The notes under the pieces are model-generated. The model did no database searches and was not told where the DNA came from. It worked only from the letters and a program-made list of their open reading frames with translations. A DNA stretch of 64,000 nucleotides. It comes from Parcubacteria group bacterium M10-OD1-1. Its GTDB lineage: Bacteria > Patescibacteriota > Minisyncoccia > Moranbacterales > UBA2206. Position 1 is the stretch's first letter; the number at the start of each line of letters is the position of its first letter. The stretch is taken from the NCBI GenBank assembly GCA_003056145.1, contig LSNL01000003.1:201993-265992 (forward strand), read 5' to 3'. Of this stretch, positions 11,229 through 32,260 are shown in pieces. A program made the position numbers and the translations under genes.

Positions 11229-11302
11229 GCCTGAATAGCTCAGTTGGTTAGAGCAACTGTTTTGTAAACAGTAGGTCGTCGGTTCGAATCCGACTTCAGG
11301 CT
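11229..11302 (+). tRNA. tRNA-Thr (anticodon TGT)
   Basis: Hand-folded cloverleaf: acceptor gcctgaa/ttcaggc, D arm gctc..gagc, anticodon stem actgt/acagt with loop tttgtaa, T arm gtcgg-ttcgaat-ccgac. No encoded CCA. Confidence 0.8.
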
Positions 11303-11325
11303 CAGTAATGATGGAATTTAATTAG

Positions 11326-11408
11326 GGGTCGGTGGCAGAGTGGTTAAATGCACCTGACTGTAAATCAGGCGACGTAAGTCTACGGCGGTTCAAATCCGTC
11401 CCGGCCCA
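11326..11408 (+). tRNA. tRNA-Tyr (anticodon GTA) with long variable arm
   Basis: Acceptor gggtcgg/ccggccc (one G-U), anticodon stem cctga/tcagg with loop ctgtaaa, long variable arm, T loop ttcaaat. Confidence 0.75.
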
Positions 11409-11463
11409 CATCAAGATTGTAAAAAGCAGGCTATTATTATAGATAGAGAACGGAGGTTTCTAC

Positions 11464-11536
11464 GCCGAGATAGCTCAGCTGGTAGAGCACGTCCATGGTA
11501 AGGACGGGGTCCCGGGTTCAAGTCCCGGTCTCGGCT
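11464..11536 (+). tRNA. tRNA-Thr (anticodon GGT)
   Basis: Acceptor gccgaga/tctcggc, D arm gctc-agctggtag-agc, anticodon stem cgtcc/ggacg with loop atggtaa, T arm ccggg-ttcaagt-cccgg. Confidence 0.8.
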
Positions 11537-18649: not shown

Positions 18650-18952
18650 ATGGAAAATTATATATTTTTAGTTCTTGGTATATTGGTAGTTGATTTAGTG
18701 GCAATATTTATTTTGAAAGAGTTTGATATTTTAGAATATTGCCAAAAGAAATATCAGGACCCAATCGCCTATATAGTAATGACCATGTTGATGTATATGG
18801 CGATAATAGGCAGTTGGATTATGCTGCCATTTATTGTCACTCTTTTCTTAGTTGAGAAAATTGGTCAAGCAATTATTATTAGGATAGTTAGTTTGGCATT
18901 AATGTTGGTTTTTAATAAAATGATGGGAGAAAAATCTTTTTTGGCGAGTTAA
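18650..18952 (+). CDS. small hypothetical membrane protein (3 TM)
   Basis: Three hydrophobic helices. Strong SD AAAGGAGGAT upstream. Followed by a clean terminator. Confidence 0.45.
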   Translation: MENYIFLVLGILVVDLVAIFILKEFDILEYCQKKYQDPIAYIVMTMLMYMAIIGSWIMLPFIVTLFLVEKIGQAIIIRIVSLALMLVFNKMMGEKSFLAS

Positions 18953-19071: not shown

Positions 19072-21714
19072 ATGTCATTTCTTAATAAATTATTTGGTTC
19101 CAACGAGAGAGAGGTTGTTAAGTTACATCCGACAGTAGAAAAAATAAATTCTTTAAGTCCTGAAATAGAAAAACTTTCAGATCTTGAATTGCAAGGTAAA
19201 ACAGAGGAATTTAGAAAAAGAAGTAAAACGGGAGAAAGTCTAAATGATTTATTGCCAGAAGCTTTTGCTGTGGTTAGAGAAACCGCCAAGAGGGTGATTG
19301 GCGAACGGCATTACGATGTTCAGTTAATGGGAGGTATAGTTCTTCATCAAGGAAAAATTGCTGAGATGAAAACTGGAGAAGGAAAAACCTTAACCTCTAC
19401 TTTGCCAATTTATTTAAACGCTATTTCTCAAAAAGGTGTTCATGTAGTGACAGTTAATGACTATTTAGCAAAACGAGATTGTAACTGGATGGGTTCTATT
19501 CTTCATTTTTTAGGAATTTCCACTGCTTGCATAATTCACGATACTTCTTATATTTATGGTCCGAAAATTATTGATAACGATGAAGTTAGTGTAGAAATGG
19601 AAAATCTAAAACCAGTCAGCCGAAGAGAGGCTTATCAGGCTGATGTTACTTACGGGACTAACAACGAGTTCGGTTTTGATTATTTGAGAGATAATATGGT
19701 GCAAAGCTTAGAGGAAATGACTCAAAGAGAGCCTAACTTTGTAATTATTGATGAGGTAGATTCTATTTTAATTGATGAAGCTAGAACACCGTTAATTATT
19801 TCGGCTCCAGATAATGAATCAACTAAAATGTATCAACAGTTTGCTTCATTAGTTCCAAGATTAAAAAATGGAGAAGACTATGAAGTGGATGAAAAAATGA
19901 AGGCAGTGGCTATTTCTGAAAAGGGAATTTCTAAAATTGAAGCGTGGTTAGGAATAGATAATATTTATGAACAAGGACGGATGAAATATGTTCATCATTT
20001 GGAGCAAGCGTTAAAAGCAGAAGCAATTTTTAAAAAAGATCATGATTATGTGGTGAAGGAGGGAGAAGTAATGATTGTAGATGATTTTACAGGACGATTG
20101 ATGCCTGGTCGTCGTTATAGTGAAGGACTTCATCAAGCGATTGAAGCCAAAGAGGGAGTGATGGTGCAAAAAGAATCTAGAACCTTAGCTACTATTACTT
20201 TTCAGAATTACTTTAGAATGTATGAAAAGATTTCTGGTATGACTGGGACAGCTACTACTTCTGCTGAGGAATTTTTTAGAGTATATAAAATGGAAGTCAT
20301 TGAGATTCCAACTGGGAAAAAACTTATTCGAAAAGATTTGCCGGATATTGTTTATAAATCGGAAAAAGGAAAATTTGATGCGATTGTAAAAAAAATAAAA
20401 GAAGTCCACTTAATAGGACAACCAATTTTAGTAGGAACAATTGCTATTGAAAAATCAGAATATTTAAGTGCTCTATTAAAACGATTTGGCATAGAACATG
20501 AAGTTCTTAACGCCAAGCAACACGAAAAAGAAGCCACGATAATTACGGATGCTGGTAAGAAAAATGCGGTAACCATTGCTACTAATATGGCGGGACGAGG
20601 GACAGATATTAAATTAGGAGAAGGCGTTAAAGAAGTAGGCGGATTGTTCATCTTAGGGACAGAACGACACGAAGCTCGGCGTATTGATAATCAATTAAGA
20701 GGTCGTTCTGGAAGACAAGGTGATCCAGGAGTTTCTCAATTTTATGTTTCTCTAGAGGACGAGCTTATGCGAAGGTTTGGCGGAGATAAATTGATTAAGA
20801 TGATGGATACCTTAAAACTTCCTGAAGACCAGCCAATCCAAAATAGAATTATTTCTAAAACTATTGAAAATGCTCAATCAAAGATTGAAGGATTTAATTT
20901 TGATATCAGAAAGCATGTTTTGGACTATGATGATGTAATGAATAAACAAAGAGAAATTGTTTATAAAACACGAAAAGAAGTTTTAAAAGCTAAAGACACT
21001 AAAAATGAGATTTTAAAATATATCAACGATGAGGTGGATAGGATTATTTCTTTTCATTGTGCAGGAGAAGAAAATAATTGGAATCTTGAAGAAGTCCTTG
21101 AAAATATAAAAAGTATTGTAGCTGTTGATGCAGTAGTTATAAAAAAATTAGAAGCTATTAAAAATGATAAAGTAAAAACTTTAGCTGAAAAAAATGTTGC
21201 TATGGCTGAATATCTAGTAGGTATTATCAAAGAGGCTTATAACAAGAAAGAGCAAGAAGTAGGAATAGAAAATTTAAGAATGATTGAACGATCTATTATC
21301 TTACAGACAATAGATGCAACTTGGATGGATCATTTAGATGAAATTGATTATCTTCGTGAAGGAATTGGTTTGCGTGGCTATGGACAGAGAGACCCTTTGG
21401 TAGAATATAAAAGAGAGGCTTTTATTATGTTTTCTAGTCTTTTGGATAACATTCATTCTACTGTTGTACGGACTATCTTTAAAATTACTATTGCTCCTTC
21501 AGAACCAACAGACGAAACTATTACGGCTAATAATTTAAATTATAGCGGAGGAGAAGACACTCACCAATTTGAAAATACTCAGGCAGAATTAACGGCAGAA
21601 GGTTCAAAAATAGAAGCGCCGAAGCAAGAACCTATTATTAGTAGCAAAGTTGGGAGAAATGATCCTTGTCCTTGTGGTAGCGGGAAAAAATATAAAAAAT
21701 GTCACGGAAAGTAA
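19072..21714 (+). CDS. secA: preprotein translocase ATPase SecA
   Basis: DEAD-motor motifs 'MKTGEGKTLTSTLP', 'VIIDEVDSILIDEARTPLIIS', 'MAGRGTDIKLG', and C-terminal zinc finger 'CPCGSGKKYKKCHG'. Confidence 0.95.
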   Translation: MSFLNKLFGSNEREVVKLHPTVEKINSLSPEIEKLSDLELQGKTEEFRKRSKTGESLNDLLPEAFAVVRETAKRVIGERHYDVQLMGGIVLHQGKIAEMKTGEGKTLTSTLPIYLNAISQKGVHVVTVNDYLAKRDCNWMGSILHFLGISTACIIHDTSYIYGPKIIDNDEVSVEMENLKPVSRREAYQADVTYGTNNEFGFDYLRDNMVQSLEEMTQREPNFVIIDEVDSILIDEARTPLIISAPDNESTKMYQQFASLVPRLKNGEDYEVDEKMKAVAISEKGISKIEAWLGIDNIYEQGRMKYVHHLEQALKAEAIFKKDHDYVVKEGEVMIVDDFTGRLMPGRRYSEGLHQAIEAKEGVMVQKESRTLATITFQNYFRMYEKISGMTGTATTSAEEFFRVYKMEVIEIPTGKKLIRKDLPDIVYKSEKGKFDAIVKKIKEVHLIGQPILVGTIAIEKSEYLSALLKRFGIEHEVLNAKQHEKEATIITDAGKKNAVTIATNMAGRGTDIKLGEGVKEVGGLFILGTERHEARRIDNQLRGRSGRQGDPGVSQFYVSLEDELMRRFGGDKLIKMMDTLKLPEDQPIQNRIISKTIENAQSKIEGFNFDIRKHVLDYDDVMNKQREIVYKTRKEVLKAKDTKNEILKYINDEVDRIISFHCAGEENNWNLEEVLENIKSIVAVDAVVIKKLEAIKNDKVKTLAEKNVAMAEYLVGIIKEAYNKKEQEVGIENLRMIERSIILQTIDATWMDHLDEIDYLREGIGLRGYGQRDPLVEYKREAFIMFSSLLDNIHSTVVRTIFKITIAPSEPTDETITANNLNYSGGEDTHQFENTQAELTAEGSKIEAPKQEPIISSKVGRNDPCPCGSGKKYKKCHGK

Positions 21715-21833
21715 GTATATATTTAATTAGTTAGTCAATACTATACTATTACTATAAATTAAAAAAATTCTTGACTGTTAGCTAACTACAGATTAAGCTT
21801 ATAATAGTTATTTAAAATAAAGGAGGTTTGAAA

Positions 21834-21977
21834 ATGGATTGGTTAATGAATAATTTTTTAAGATTTCTTTGGCGCAAGCTTCACAGTTTTGCTCGGCCCA
21901 CTAGTTTGGGTCAACGGGATTACTCCAAGGAAGTAACCTGGAGAAATTATAAGTTAAAAATTAAAAATAATAATCAA
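21834..21977 (+). CDS. 47-aa ORF that looks like a 3' remnant of one repeat unit of the downstream Cys-rich gene (possible pseudogene fragment)
   Basis: Manual translation MDWLMNNFLRFLWRKLHSFARPTSLGQRDYSKEVTWRNYKLKIKNNNQ. Its 3' half is encoded by direct repeat R1. N-terminal 'FLRFLWRKLHSF' resembles the 'FLAVLRYKFY' end of the downstream gene. Strong SD AAAGGAGG. Confidence 0.35.
21897..21937 (+). repeat. direct repeat R1 (41 nt), partner at 22509-22549 (3 mismatches)
   Basis: cccactagtttgGgtcaacgggattaCtccaaGgaagtaac versus cccactagtttgAgtcaacgggattaTtccaaAgaagtaac, read directly from the sequence. Confidence 0.9.
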
Positions 21978-21999
21978 TAAAACTAGGCTAAGAAGGAGA

Positions 22000-22521
22000 T
22001 TGAAAATGAAAAAAGTAGAGTGCAGGAGTATACTTGGAAATACCGTTGTGTTATATTGTTCGGATGAGGCATTGAAGCAGTTTATGATGCCAGATGGAGA
22101 ACCAGCTAAGCGTGGCGACTGCTGGAATAGTAACTGTGGTCCATTGACAATATATGGAACAATGGACAATCGTTTGTATGCAAAATGGGAAGATCCTGTA
22201 GAAGTTGTTGATTCTCTCAATGGAAGTGAGGAGCCATTTTCTGAGGCTGTTCGTAAATATAATCTAACTTTAGTTTCTAAAAATATTAAAGTGGATTGTT
22301 CAGATGAGGCATTGAAGCAGTTTATGATGCCAGATGGAGAACCAGCTAAGCGTGGCGACTGCTGGAATAGCAGCTGTGGTCCATTGACAATATATGGAGC
22401 AATGGACAATCGTTTATATGCAAAATGGGAAAAAGATGCAGAAATTCTGACTCCTCTTAATGGAAAGGATGAACCATTTTTTCTGGCGGTTCTTAGATAT
22501 AAATTTTACCCACTAGTTTGA
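22000..22521 (+). CDS. hypothetical protein made of two tandem ~80-aa Cys-containing repeats (no known family)
   Basis: Two copies of 'CSDEALKQFMMPDGEPAKRGDCWNS(N/S)CGPLTIYG(T/A)MDNRLYAKWE'. SD AAGGAGAT. GC content visibly above the flanking genes. Terminator downstream. Confidence 0.6.
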   Translation: MKMKKVECRSILGNTVVLYCSDEALKQFMMPDGEPAKRGDCWNSNCGPLTIYGTMDNRLYAKWEDPVEVVDSLNGSEEPFSEAVRKYNLTLVSKNIKVDCSDEALKQFMMPDGEPAKRGDCWNSSCGPLTIYGAMDNRLYAKWEKDAEILTPLNGKDEPFFLAVLRYKFYPLV

Positions 22522-22536
22522 GTCAACGGGATTATT
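22057..22536 (+). repeat. 2 x 240-nt tandem duplication inside the ORF; the first 134 nt of each unit are nearly identical, the remainder diverged
   Basis: Units at 22057-22296 and 22297-22536. Conserved cores 22057-22190 versus 22297-22430 differ only at the few positions named in the finding (tcGgat/tcAgat, TAA/CAG, ggaAca/ggaGca, tttGta/tttAta). Confidence 0.9.
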
Positions 22537-22549
22537 CCAAAGAAGTAAC
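22509..22549 (+). repeat. direct repeat R2 (partner of R1)
   Basis: See R1. Overlaps the stop codon of the tandem-repeat ORF. Confidence 0.9.
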
Positions 22550-22603
22550 TTAGAAAAGTTCTAGGTTTAAAAAATAGTAGAGATTTTTGATTTTTTAAAT
22601 CTT

Positions 22604-22642
22604 AAGCTACAAGGAAATTAAATTTCTTTGTAGCTTTTTTTG
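22604..22642 (+). terminator. intrinsic terminator after the duplicated Cys-rich locus
   Basis: ~14-bp stem aagctacaaggaaat/atttctttgtagctt (one G-U) followed by TTTTTTT. Confidence 0.65.
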
Positions 22643-22731
22643 TAATTTCAGAACTATTAATAAAAAGAAACTAATACAAAAAAAGAAATATCTTTTGTTT
22701 TATTTAAAATAGGTCAGGCTAAGACTAAAAG

Positions 22732-22766: not shown

Positions 22767-24467
22767 ATGAATTTAAGGAAAAAACTTTTAATAAAATTTT
22801 ATTCAGTTATTTTATTAACCCTTATTGTGGGGGTGATTTCTTATCCTAAAATTATTTCTTTTGCCCCGCCAGCTTATAATCTTTTGAATAAAGTGAAAAT
22901 TCGTTTAGGATTGGATTTGCAAGGAGGTATTCACTTAGAATATAGAGCCGATCTTTCAAAAGTTAGCTTCAATCAAAAGAAAGAAGCTATGCAAGCGTTG
23001 CAGGATGTTATTGAAAGGCGAGTTAATGCTTTTGGCGTGGCTGAACCACTTATTTATACCACTAAATCAGGAGATAAAGAACATCTAGTTGTTGAATTAG
23101 CAGGAGTTAAAGATATAGATAAAGCGAAAGCAATGATTAAAGAAACTCCATTTTTGGAGTTTAAAAAAGAAAAAGCGGATCAAACAGTTCAAAAAATTCC
23201 ACCTAAAATTTTGGAAAAAATTAATGCTGAAAAAGAAAAAAGAGCTGAAAAAATTCTTCAAGAAGCTCTAGCGGGAAAAGATTTTAATCAGTTAGCTAAA
23301 GAAAATAGTCAAGATTCTGAATCTAAAAACAAGGGTGGTGACCTAGGTTTTATCAAAAAAGGCATGCTATTGCCAGCGGTAGAGAAAGTTGCTTTTGACC
23401 CTAATTTTAAAGATGGAACAATTTACCCTAAATTAGTAAAATCTATTTTTGGATGGCATATTATCAAGAAGATTGGTGAGCGGGGTCAAGGAAATTCACG
23501 AGAAGTTCATATTGCTCACATTTTAATTATGCTTGAAATGCAACCTCAGGCACAAACTCAATATGTGCCAACTGGTTTAACAGGGAAAGATTTAAAGAGT
23601 GCTAAGATGGAAATTCCACAACAAGGATTATCTGGTCCAGAGGTATCTTTAGAATTTAATAATCAAGGTACTAAATTATTTGCAGCGCTTACCAAAGATA
23701 ATATTGGTAAACGAGTAGCAATTTATTTAGACGGAAAGTTAGTTAGTGCACCTACTGTTCAAGCTGAAATTACTAATGGAAGGGCGGTTATTTCTGGAAA
23801 TTTTACAATAGCGGGAGCGAAAAAATTAGCTAACAGATTAAACGAAGGTGCTTTACCAGTTCCTATTCACTTAATATCACAACACAGCGTTGATGCTTCT
23901 CTAGGAGCAGAATCTTTTATTAAAAGTATTAAAGCTGGAGCAGTTGGTTTAGGTGTAGTAATAATTTTTATGATTTTCTATTATCGCTTTCTAGGTTTGA
24001 TAGCTTCAATAGCTCTTTTAATTTATACTGCCTTAATGGTTGCAATTTTTAAGCTATCCACCTTAACTCCTTGGTCAATTACTTTTACTCTCTCTGGGAT
24101 TGCGGGTTTTATTTTGTCTATTGGAATGGCTGTAGATGCTAATGTTTTGATATTTGAAAGAACTAAAGAGGAATTAAAGAAAGGGAGAAATGTCCTAGGT
24201 TCTATTGAGGAAGGTTTTAATAGAGCTTGGCCGAGTATTCGGGATGGTAACTATTCTACTATCATTACCTCAATTATTTTAATTGGAGTGGGTACGGGAT
24301 TTGTCAAAGGTTTTGCTATTATTTTAGTTATTGGAGTTTTAGTATCAATGTTTACCGCGATTATTATAGTAAAAACAATTTTAGAATTTACAGTTGGCGA
24401 TTGGTTAGAAAAAAGAGTTTGGCTGATTGCTAGGGTTGAAAATAAAACTAACGAAGAAAATAAATGA
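22767..24467 (+). CDS. secD: protein translocase subunit SecD carrying an inserted parvulin-type PPIase-like domain in the periplasmic head
   Basis: SecD signatures 'LGLDLQGGIHLEYRA' and 'AIYLDGKLVSAPTVQAEITNGRAVISGNFT', plus 6 C-terminal TMs. Residues ~160-250 'GKDFNQLAKENSQDSESKNKGGDLGFIKKGMLLPAVEKVAFD...FGWHIIKK' closely parallel E. coli PpiC. Confidence 0.85.
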   Translation: MNLRKKLLIKFYSVILLTLIVGVISYPKIISFAPPAYNLLNKVKIRLGLDLQGGIHLEYRADLSKVSFNQKKEAMQALQDVIERRVNAFGVAEPLIYTTKSGDKEHLVVELAGVKDIDKAKAMIKETPFLEFKKEKADQTVQKIPPKILEKINAEKEKRAEKILQEALAGKDFNQLAKENSQDSESKNKGGDLGFIKKGMLLPAVEKVAFDPNFKDGTIYPKLVKSIFGWHIIKKIGERGQGNSREVHIAHILIMLEMQPQAQTQYVPTGLTGKDLKSAKMEIPQQGLSGPEVSLEFNNQGTKLFAALTKDNIGKRVAIYLDGKLVSAPTVQAEITNGRAVISGNFTIAGAKKLANRLNEGALPVPIHLISQHSVDASLGAESFIKSIKAGAVGLGVVIIFMIFYYRFLGLIASIALLIYTALMVAIFKLSTLTPWSITFTLSGIAGFILSIGMAVDANVLIFERTKEELKKGRNVLGSIEEGFNRAWPSIRDGNYSTIITSIILIGVGTGFVKGFAIILVIGVLVSMFTAIIIVKTILEFTVGDWLEKRVWLIARVENKTNEENK

Positions 24468-25386: not shown

Positions 25387-25626
25387 ATGTTTAATCCTTT
25401 TAGCAAAAATAAATCAGGAGCTAACGCTGGGAAAATGGGAATGTTACAAAAAATAGCCATGAAAAAATTGGCTAAAATGAGTCCGCAAGAACAGCAAAAG
25501 GTTATGCAAGAAGCTATGAAACCAAAAAATAGAGATAAAATGATAGCAGCAATGGAACAAATGAAAAAATCTGGTCAAATTACTGAAGAACAATATAAAA
25601 TAGCGAAACAAAAAATGGGAATGTAA
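25387..25626 (+). CDS. hypothetical small Met/Lys/Gln-rich protein
   Basis: 79 aa with 11 Met ('MGMLQKIAMKKLAKM...'), loosely reminiscent of the Met-rich Ffh M-domain tail. No TM. Confidence 0.4.
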   Translation: MFNPFSKNKSGANAGKMGMLQKIAMKKLAKMSPQEQQKVMQEAMKPKNRDKMIAAMEQMKKSGQITEEQYKIAKQKMGM

Positions 25627-31785: not shown

Positions 31786-31880
31786 GACCTTATTTACAAA
31801 AAGTTAATTTTATGGTAAGGTTTCAGGTGGTTTAAAAAGTGAAATTTTAAGAAATAAAGTAGTTCTTTTAATACTTATCA

Positions 31881-32204
31881 AGGTAAATTGAGTAGTCGCT
31901 CCAGTTTTTGGAGAGGAAAGTCCGGACATTCAGCCTAATCTTAATTGGCAAGGGTAGCGGGTAACTCCCGTCTAGAGTAATCTAAGAGGTGCGAGCAGAG
32001 ACGCTTCCTTCAGAAATGAAGAAGCACCCTTTTGGGGTGAGCTCTAATAGTAATATTAGAGGTGAAACGGCAAAATCCTTACCTGAATGCAAGGTCGTGT
32101 TCTATTTTTGAATAAAATATAGAAAGTGCCGCGCGAGGTTTTAAGTAATTAAAACCCAAGATAAATGACTACTCACGACAAAATCCGGCTTATAGATTTA
32201 CCTT
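31881..32204 (+). ncRNA. rnpB: RNase P RNA (bacterial type, compact)
   Basis: CR-I 'GAGGAAAGTCCGGAC', CR-II-like 'AGAGGTGAAACGGC', CR-V 'GACAAAATCCGGCTTAT' (P4 halves). Terminal P1 pairing aggtaaattgagtagtc / gactactc...atttacct. Confidence 0.8.
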
Positions 32205-32260
32205 GATAAATATCAAAAGAATTAAAAACTAAATTAAGTAAAATTAGAAATAAGATTATT

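Follow-up and report, generated by a model that had tools for sequence, protein, structure and literature searches.

What is a small, tandemly duplicated gene without recognisable relatives doing between secA and secD of a patescibacterial chromosome, and how does a 34-nt piece of it come to stand in a CRISPR array that appears to belong to another bacterium? The DNA in question is a stretch of 64,000 nt, here called the window, from assembly GCA_003056145.1 of Parcubacteria group bacterium M10-OD1-1 (contig LSNL01000003.1, positions 201,993 to 265,992 of the forward strand), an uncultured organism that its SecD relatives place in Candidatus Moraniibacteriota. The locus consists of two same-strand open reading frames (ORFs) of 48 and 171 aa flanked by secA (19072-21714) and secD (22767-24467). 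We show that a spacer of a type III CRISPR-Cas locus equipped with a reverse transcriptase (RT) has its exact source or target in the homogenised core of two repeat units in the longer ORF, and we consider it probable that the locus is a two-gene orphan operon in a variable chromosomal slot, the nucleic acid of which was sampled by a co-resident bacterium. The features that carry this finding are the following, in window coordinates:

22006..22521, + strand: main orphan ORF, 171 aa, isoelectric point (pI) 4.9, 7 Cys, 0 His, without signal peptide or transmembrane segment
22055..22262, + strand: repeat unit 1, homogenised over 22055-22191, with an old diverged part at 22192-22262
22295..22502, + strand: repeat unit 2, homogenised over 22295-22431, diverged over 22432-22502, truncated at the junction 22508/22509 with the direct repeat R2 described below
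22060..22093, + strand: protospacer 1, matching spacer A3 of the array on contig VAPK010664701.1 at 34/34 positions, with the CRISPR RNA (crRNA) complementary to the mRNA-sense strand
22300..22333, + strand: protospacer 2, matching at 33/34 positions, the mismatch being at crRNA spacer position 32, at the 3' end

Spacer A3, the third from the leader (TCGGATGAGGCATTGAAGCAGTTTATGATGCCAG), stands in an array whose 8 repeats, each 37 nt long, alternate with 7 spacers of 33-34 nt at a period of 70-71 nt, and the repeat that flanks the spacers in this array family is GTTGGAAG[G/A]ACTCCTCGCTAAAGAAGAGGATTGAGAC. The chance expectation of spacer matches, as judged by shuffles, is 0. The same contig (L003) had been returned by a metagenome scan as a "36% identical protein relative", which proved to be an artefact, namely a translated CRISPR array. 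The cas1 gene beside the array (E = 1.5e-66) is identical to that of a longer contig, L084, in which a type III RAMP (repeat-associated mysterious protein) gene, cas2, a further cas2, an AT-rich leader, the array, cas1, a stand-alone group-II-like RT and cas6 follow one another on a single strand. This RT is a separate 282-aa RVT_1 gene (Pfam, E = 1.5e-14; CRISPR-RT of PADLOC, E = 1.8e-93) that, in L084 as well as in two sister loci, L086 and L088, overlaps cas1 at its 3' end, and the RAMP, a partial protein of 388 aa, reaches 188.6 bits with TIGR03986 against a cutoff of 161.35 and is called Csm3/Cas7_IIId by PADLOC (E = 2.7e-51). We also observed that the two tandem cas2 genes directly upstream of the leader (L084, 1178-1882; 95 and 123 aa) are different from one another, an unusual duplication for the adaptation module.

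Four cues agree on the orientation of the array, namely the position of an AT-rich leader, for which a sister array shows conservation, the degeneracy of the terminal repeat, the ATTGAGAC end of the repeat and the placement of the array on the strand of the cas genes, and therefore the crRNA is antisense to the coding strand of the ORF; antisense to the predicted mRNA is, in addition, the orientation that interference would require. In type III systems, a crRNA tag that does not pair with the target flank is the non-self configuration, and in the present case the 8-nt tag pairs with the flank at 3/8 positions. The sister loci L086 (1-975) and L088 (1-436), the Cas1 proteins of which are 84% and 70% identical, respectively, share the 3' half of the repeat and the cas1-RT-cas6 order of L084, with a conserved leader in L086, while their spacer sets (10 and 4 spacers) are wholly different and none of them matches anything. 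Spacer matching covered 64 kb of the target genome, and the other 20 spacers of the array and its two sisters likewise found no match in 1 Mb of Moraniibacteriota loci, INPHARED or IMG/VR.

Judging from its sequence, the owner of the array is a different bacterium from the Moraniibacteriota: the GC content of the CRISPR contig is 0.52-0.58 vs. 0.30 for the window, and the CRISPR repeat is absent from the window. It is probably a member of Desulfobacterota, given that the nearest named Cas1 proteins are those of Desulfomarina, Desulfobacteraceae and Desulfocicer and that a relative with 70% Cas1 identity adjoins dsrC; the RAMP homologues did not refine this assignment, their identity not exceeding 40% except in one 90% fragment. 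Both partners were found in the same sample, with the sequencing run SRR6439371 containing the CRISPR contig L084 together with L093, which covers the secD side of the locus, and the assembly GCA_006243085.1 containing both VAPK010664701.1 and VAPK010323647.1. The spacer must descend from the sequence of this locus or from an identical copy of it, and since every ORF-bearing contig in the same-sample assemblies shows the secA/secD context and nothing similar to the ORF is present in IMG/VR, INPHARED or PLSDB (nor is there a PHROG family for it), we are fairly confident that the chromosome or its transcript is the most likely source.

How did the target of the spacer come to be present twice? 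Tandem Repeats Finder (period 240, 1.9 copies, 87% matches, 22055-22502) bears out the two 240-nt tandem units that an earlier note, made on this DNA from the letters alone, had described; the aligned unit span is 208 nt, and the sequence flanking the units on both sides is unrelated between them. The first 137 nt of the units (22055-22191 vs. 22295-22431) are 96.4% identical, and here the note was right about the conservation and miscounted the differences, which are 5 and not 6 (TAA/CAG being 2 of them), whereas the following 71 nt (22192-22262 vs. 22432-22502) are much more diverged, as it had also claimed, with an identity of 69% that was nonetheless reached by 0/10000 shuffles. These diverged parts keep the frame without indels (insertions or deletions) and retain the residues LNG..EPF..AV..Y. 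The split between 96% and 69% identity supports the view that an old internal duplication was followed by recent or ongoing gene conversion limited to the Cys-bearing core, just as had been proposed in the note. A second argument for conversion comes from strain variation, because both single-nucleotide polymorphisms (SNPs) known in the main ORF replace a base with that of the other unit: the sole main-ORF SNP of one strain (L001; 22062 G>A) gives unit 1 the unit-2 base, and a T>C change near 22457 in a third version, L093, gives unit 2 the unit-1 base. The possibility that the N-terminal 17 aa of the main ORF are a further partial unit was rejected, and a search of the window for additional copies of the unit or of the direct repeat R (see below), which the note had proposed as a check, found none. 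The unit-to-unit differences are mixed transitions and not A-specific, and there is no RT or recombinase in the neighbourhood, so that a diversity-generating retroelement was discarded as well.

The strain L001 belongs to a second same-species assembly, GCA_003056095.1, which was compared with the window over 20.5 kb and is 99.9% identical to it, with 12 SNPs and one indel. Five of these 13 strain differences fall within 68 nt of the upstream small ORF (Poisson P ~1e-9, or ~4e-7 after correction for the window), at the following place:

21837..21904, + strand: strain-difference hotspot in the interior of the first of two cassettes, 4 SNPs and an in-frame 9-nt indel

Two of the SNPs are synonymous and two are non-synonymous, and the frame of the upstream ORF is preserved through the indel. 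Variation in copy number, for which the note had proposed to look, is not supported: both full-length strain versions, on independent contigs of 197,992 and 273,852 nt, have exactly two units each and are 1 SNP apart. Short-read contigs end at 21836 (VAPM010605624.1 among them), 22092, 22341 and 22463, and three assemblies break inside the locus, a pattern that repeats and strain-variable sites would lead one to expect. At 18697-18700, in a 100-aa hydrophobic ORF (18650-18952), 3/12 SNPs lie within 4 nt and form a second micro-cluster. The exact strain sequence around this ORF and secA is also found in L091 (Logan SRR32234002_7985), whose run accession is much later, and this lineage may thus recur in another dataset.

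The arrangement of the locus as a whole rests on two direct repeats and two initiation regions:

21834..21980, + strand: upstream small ORF, 48 aa, pI 10.7 (51 aa in strain L001), a gene call in the NCBI assemblies
21897..21960, + strand: direct repeat R1, at the 3' end of cassette 1, found by repeat search
22509..22572, + strand: direct repeat R2, which the main ORF enters for 4 codons (PLV*) in a frame different from that of the upstream ORF in R1
21820..21836, + strand: initiation region of cassette 1 (AAGGAGGTTTGAAAATG), motif AAGGAG-N1-3-TTGAAAATG
21993..22008, + strand: initiation region of cassette 2 (AAGGAGATTGAAAATG), with the same motif

R1 and R2, which the note had seen as 41-nt direct repeats bracketing the locus, extend to 64 nt with 84% identity around a 41-nt core that is 92.7% identical (3 mismatches), and they bracket a segment of 548 nt. 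Read in the frame of R1, R2 encodes PTSLSQRDYSKEVT*, which agrees with the similar tail announced beforehand. In the frame of the upstream ORF, the differences between R1 and R2 are 3 synonymous ones, one Gly/Ser and one stop, while in the frame of the main ORF all of them are non-synonymous (both read from the sequence), and these counts give a hint, without significance, of R being native to the small ORF and of the main ORF simply running 4 codons into R2, in which case unit 2 would have been truncated at the R2 junction. The part of the small ORF that precedes R1 does not resemble the units significantly (z = 0.6 at the DNA level and 1.5 at the protein level), so that the idea of a third unit, the tail of which the upstream ORF was supposed to be, depends on R1/R2 alone and was rejected by these shuffle tests. 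A programmed frameshift from the main ORF into the PTSLSQRDYSKEVT frame of R2 was likewise discarded, with TAA/TAG directly upstream and no X XXY YYZ slippery site.

When both strands of the 64 kb were scanned, the initiation motif was found at 2 sites only, and these are the starts of the two ORFs. The shared initiation motif and the shared R together lead us to describe the locus as two cassettes with homologous ends, that is, a 5' ribosome-binding site and start motif and a 3' 64-nt R, between which the interiors, of 63 nt in cassette 1 and 503 nt in cassette 2, are unrelated. Cassette 1 would produce a basic peptide of 48-51 aa, its interior being the strain-difference hotspot, and cassette 2 an acidic, cytoplasmic, Cys-containing orphan protein of 171 aa built from the old internal duplication. 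The recombining cassette suggested in the note is thus retained insofar as the 5' motif, the 3' R and the hotspot in the interior of the first ORF are concerned, but its phase-variable version, whether by inversion or slipped-strand pairing, is not, given that the only inverted repeats are terminator hairpins, no recombinase lies nearby and both strains have two units. An integron gene cassette was rejected too. As in integrons, there are two consecutive small ORFs, each with a ~64-nt 3' repeat and its own ribosome-binding site; unlike in integrons, R overlaps coding sequence and the Pfam gene list shows no integrase or transposase within +/-10 kb. Unlike attC, R has no GTTRRRY/RYYYAAC pair of core sites (read from the sequence) and no imperfect palindrome, and the repeat search found no inverted repeat inside R1 or R2, a 5-bp hairpin being visible by eye only.

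Is the locus a transcription unit of its own? Two further features bear on this question:

21800..21805, + strand: candidate -10 box TATAAT of a two-gene operon, read from the sequence
22604..22643, + strand: terminator-like hairpin of 15 pairs (22604-22636) with T-run at the end of the operon

The Shine-Dalgarno spacing is optimal for both ORFs and, for the main ORF, favours ATG 22006, 7 nt past GGAGA (171 aa, as in the NCBI call), over TTG 22000, which is 1 nt past it (173 aa); the ORF of the note therefore stands with another start. The candidate -10 box was not flagged by the promoter scan, and the TTGACT at 21771-21776, 23 nt upstream of it, is too distant for a canonical sigma-70 -35 box. 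The GC content of the main ORF is 0.391 vs. a window mean of 0.298 +/- 0.038 (98.7th percentile), and that at third codon positions (GC3) is 0.30 vs. 0.19-0.24 in the neighbouring genes. These data support an independent operon with no recognisable family, in keeping with the Shine-Dalgarno sites, terminator, raised GC content and lack of family noted earlier. The hairpin at 22604-22640 resembles intergenic DNA of 17 Bacillus mycoides plasmids in PLSDB (89-92% over 37 nt), but this resemblance is limited to the terminator and is most likely due to chance or to a convergent AT-rich hairpin.

The operon is, as far as gene order in relatives can tell, a lineage-specific insertion in a variable secA-secD slot. 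None of the 24 relatives with secA upstream of secD has the ORF in this gap (24/24), which in them measures 129-173 nt or is occupied by NUDIX and other genes; one of the short-gap relatives, L036, is a sister metagenome-assembled genome with an accession adjoining that of L001. More widely, the secA-secD interval of the Moraniibacteriota (L004-L083) varies in length between 129 nt and 4.3 kb, and 1-3 NUDIX-type hydrolase genes (FEKSVGAVVFR...HWDFPKGH) are usually present in it, whereas the organism of the window has no NUDIX-type gene there.

The proteins themselves are orphans. For the 171-aa protein, a word-indexed search of 5.8 billion clusters and an exhaustive phmmer search of 1.84 billion representatives returned only the query itself; both ORFs had no match in Pfam, NCBIfam, PHROGs or PADLOC; PDB sequences gave nothing either (the thioredoxin row has E = 0.46); Pfam gave nothing below E = 0.015 for the main protein; and Rfam gave only sub-threshold miRNA/snoRNA noise at the locus. 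We regard the matches to CotJB (E = 0.015), TIGR04140 and thioredoxin (E = 0.46) as noise. Foldseek vs. PDB and BFVD gave no match with E <= 0.001, and its FGF/beta-trefoil and WD40 rows, with template-modelling scores below 0.4, are meaningless. The Cys spacing is C-x20-C-x4-C, and with 7 Cys, 0 His and no significant profile or fold match, neither the metal site of three Cys plus His imagined in the note nor a thioredoxin-like or zinc-binding Cys-rich domain could be upheld. The same is true of the expanding secreted or surface family, since the acidic protein has no signal peptide, transmembrane or hydrophobic segment (maximum Kyte-Doolittle 19-residue score 0.64), paralogue or homologue, and secretion is accordingly unsupported. 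All that we commit to concerning its nature is a young, rapidly changing orphan operon.

Several points have to be weighed against the sampling of this operon by a co-resident bacterium. The assignment of the array to Desulfobacterota is only an inference, because the contig is unbinned and cas loci move horizontally, and Cas10 is not on the CRISPR contig, which ends before it could be seen, so that the subtype is not fixed. One of the 7 spacers of the array matches the window, and 0/14 do so in the two sister arrays; for this single spacer, an antisense orientation has a prior of 50%. The transcript of the main ORF is itself predicted, the putative coding on the + strand is judged from the Shine-Dalgarno site, from the terminator and from the direction of the genes, and a 151-aa ORF exists on the opposite strand of the locus. 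The AlphaFold2 models are of low confidence, with a predicted local distance difference test (pLDDT) of 41 for the full length and 61.5 for a single unit with a 2-sequence alignment. Finally, a mobile-element origin would also agree with the raised GC content, the direct repeats on either side and the insertion in a variable slot.

This last alternative, in which a fragment of a mobile element such as a phage or plasmid integrated between secA and secD, left R1/R2 as its scar and gave rise to the spacer from a free copy of the element, would account for the GC content at the 98.7th percentile with raised GC3, for 64-nt direct repeats around a 548-nt segment, for a secA-secD gap that varies among relatives and for a protein as orphan as many mobile-element genes, and CRISPR spacers do mostly derive from mobile elements. 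It is, however, unlikely in our judgement: the same-sample assemblies contain no copy outside the secA-secD context, the virus and plasmid collections named above lack the ORF, no PHROG family includes it, and no integrase or transposase appears in the Pfam gene list within +/-10 kb; besides, an element infecting both a 30% GC cell of the candidate phyla radiation (CPR) and a 55% GC bacterium would be unusual, and no base distinguishes the spacer from the chromosomal allele that the strain in that very sample carries. Much less credit still is due to the view that the locus is non-coding or artefactual, with untranslated ORFs and a repeat created by assembly, which we hold to be highly improbable. 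The mirror 151-aa ORF on the minus strand, the several short-read contigs that break inside the locus and the lack of homologues that might reveal purifying selection speak for it, but the two long contigs both show two units and differ there by 1 SNP, the Shine-Dalgarno spacing of each ORF is optimal, the 69%-identical unit parts keep their frame without indels and retain LNG..EPF..AV..Y, the upstream frame survives the 9-nt indel and no Rfam family matches.

A more serious contender, though one that we still rate as somewhat unlikely, leaves the gene an ordinary, young and fast-evolving one and the spacer incidental, taken from free DNA or RNA by uptake driven by abundance, without any specific association between the two bacteria and without the locus being in any way special. 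The genome of this organism would measure ~1 Mb, an estimate taken from CPR genomes generally, and a 34-nt sample of it would be improbable to land in an independently flagged locus of 0.8 kb unless that locus were over-represented. A single matching spacer and the remaining unmatched "dark matter" spacers are nevertheless what incidental uptake could leave, and spacers from co-resident prokaryotes have been found to be frequent, with donor abundance accounting for part of this (Sures et al. 2025, PMC12612501). Against it stand also the type III spacers on repeated ORFs of a patescibacterial partner whose association is confirmed by fluorescence in situ hybridisation (FISH) (bioRxiv 10.64898/2026.09.16.751625).

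Under the reading that we prefer, in which a co-resident bacterium sampled the operon, RNA or DNA of the operon would have entered the CRISPR-bearing bacterium, either through cell-cell association or by uptake of free nucleic acid, and the Cas1-Cas2(-RT) module would have captured a 34-nt fragment of it; by analogy with known RT-bearing modules, capture from RNA through the RT next to cas1 is possible. The resulting crRNA, antisense to the mRNA of the ORF and with a 5' tag unpaired with the flank, would then lead the type III complex to treat the transcript as foreign. A stronger proposal, which we put forward tentatively and on balance doubt, is that the CRISPR bearer has the Moraniibacteriota cell as its epibiont or parasite, that the operon serves as an interaction locus, with its transcript or DNA reaching the cytoplasm of the host, and that the RT-equipped type III system of the host captured the spacer and targets the mRNA. 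If this were true, it would provide the first host lead for a Moraniibacteriota lineage, and repeated orphan ORFs would be what a host CRISPR system preferentially "sees" in Patescibacteria.

The cross-phylum spacer match is, in any case, a new instance of a recently recognised phenomenon. In a close parallel, Ca. Phosphoribacter has type III-E spacers that match repeated ORFs, of unknown function, of Ca. Lutisaccharimonas, its epibiont, an association confirmed by FISH (bioRxiv 10.64898/2026.09.16.751625), and further examples of spacers taken from the chromosomes of other prokaryotes or of episymbionts are those of Sures et al. (PMC12612501) and, as cited in these papers, that of Altiarchaeum-Huberarchaeum (Esser et al. 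2023). Like these cases, ours is a cross-phylum match within one community that involves a type III system and a protospacer in an ORF of unknown function, situated in repeated patescibacterial sequence that is not recognisably viral. Unlike them, the donor here is a member of Moraniibacteriota and the recipient probably one of Desulfobacterota, the adaptation module carries a stand-alone RT that would make RNA capture possible, the match concerns one spacer and is known from sequence alone, and the repeat is an internal tandem duplication in one gene instead of 4-6 dispersed copies.

An RT adjacent to cas1 is known from RT-associated type III modules, in which RT-Cas1 fusions acquire spacers from RNA (Silas et al. 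2017, PMC5513706; Gonzalez-Delgado et al. 2019, PMC6821258), and the present locus resembles them in its group-II-intron-like RT directly downstream of cas1, the adjoining cas6, the type III RAMP effector gene and the 34-nt spacers, mostly without database match. It differs in that its RT, encoded by a separate gene of 282 aa that overlaps the end of cas1, is not a fusion, that the short contig lacks Cas10 and further effector genes and that acquisition from RNA is here conjectural. As a gene, the main ORF is like intragenic repeats under concerted evolution, with two in-frame units, a sharp 96%/69% boundary and SNPs that copy the paralogous base; it departs from the typical examples in having only two units and no copy-number polymorphism seen, and from the surface adhesin type in being an orphan protein predicted to be cytoplasmic.

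Most Patescibacteria have unknown partners, and in our literature search no paper turned up that connects Moranbacteria or Moraniibacteriota with a host. A perfect spacer match within the same sample is a rare sequence-only clue to encounters and offers, for a member of the Moraniibacteriota, a lead to a host or partner that can be tested. It is also the second case, beside the recent preprint, of a type III spacer in a repeated patescibacterial ORF of unknown function, and the stand-alone RT beside cas1 suggests that foreign bacterial RNA, and not only phage RNA, is possibly recorded. Taken alone, the locus illustrates, cleanly and on a small scale, gene conversion in a young orphan gene.

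Some minor features of the window deserve mention. In SecD (22767-24467, 566 aa), SecD_1st and the P1 head are separated by a rotamase domain of the PpiC type (PF00639/PF13616), a full-length architecture common to ~80 Moraniibacteriota/Parcubacteria relatives with 51-71% identity. Between secF and pheS there is a Lys/Met/Gln-rich ORF of 79 aa (25387-25626), called as a gene by NCBI and without Pfam match. A cluster of three tRNA genes (11229-11536) and a bacterial RNase P class A RNA (31880-32208, 136 bits) are ordinary housekeeping features.

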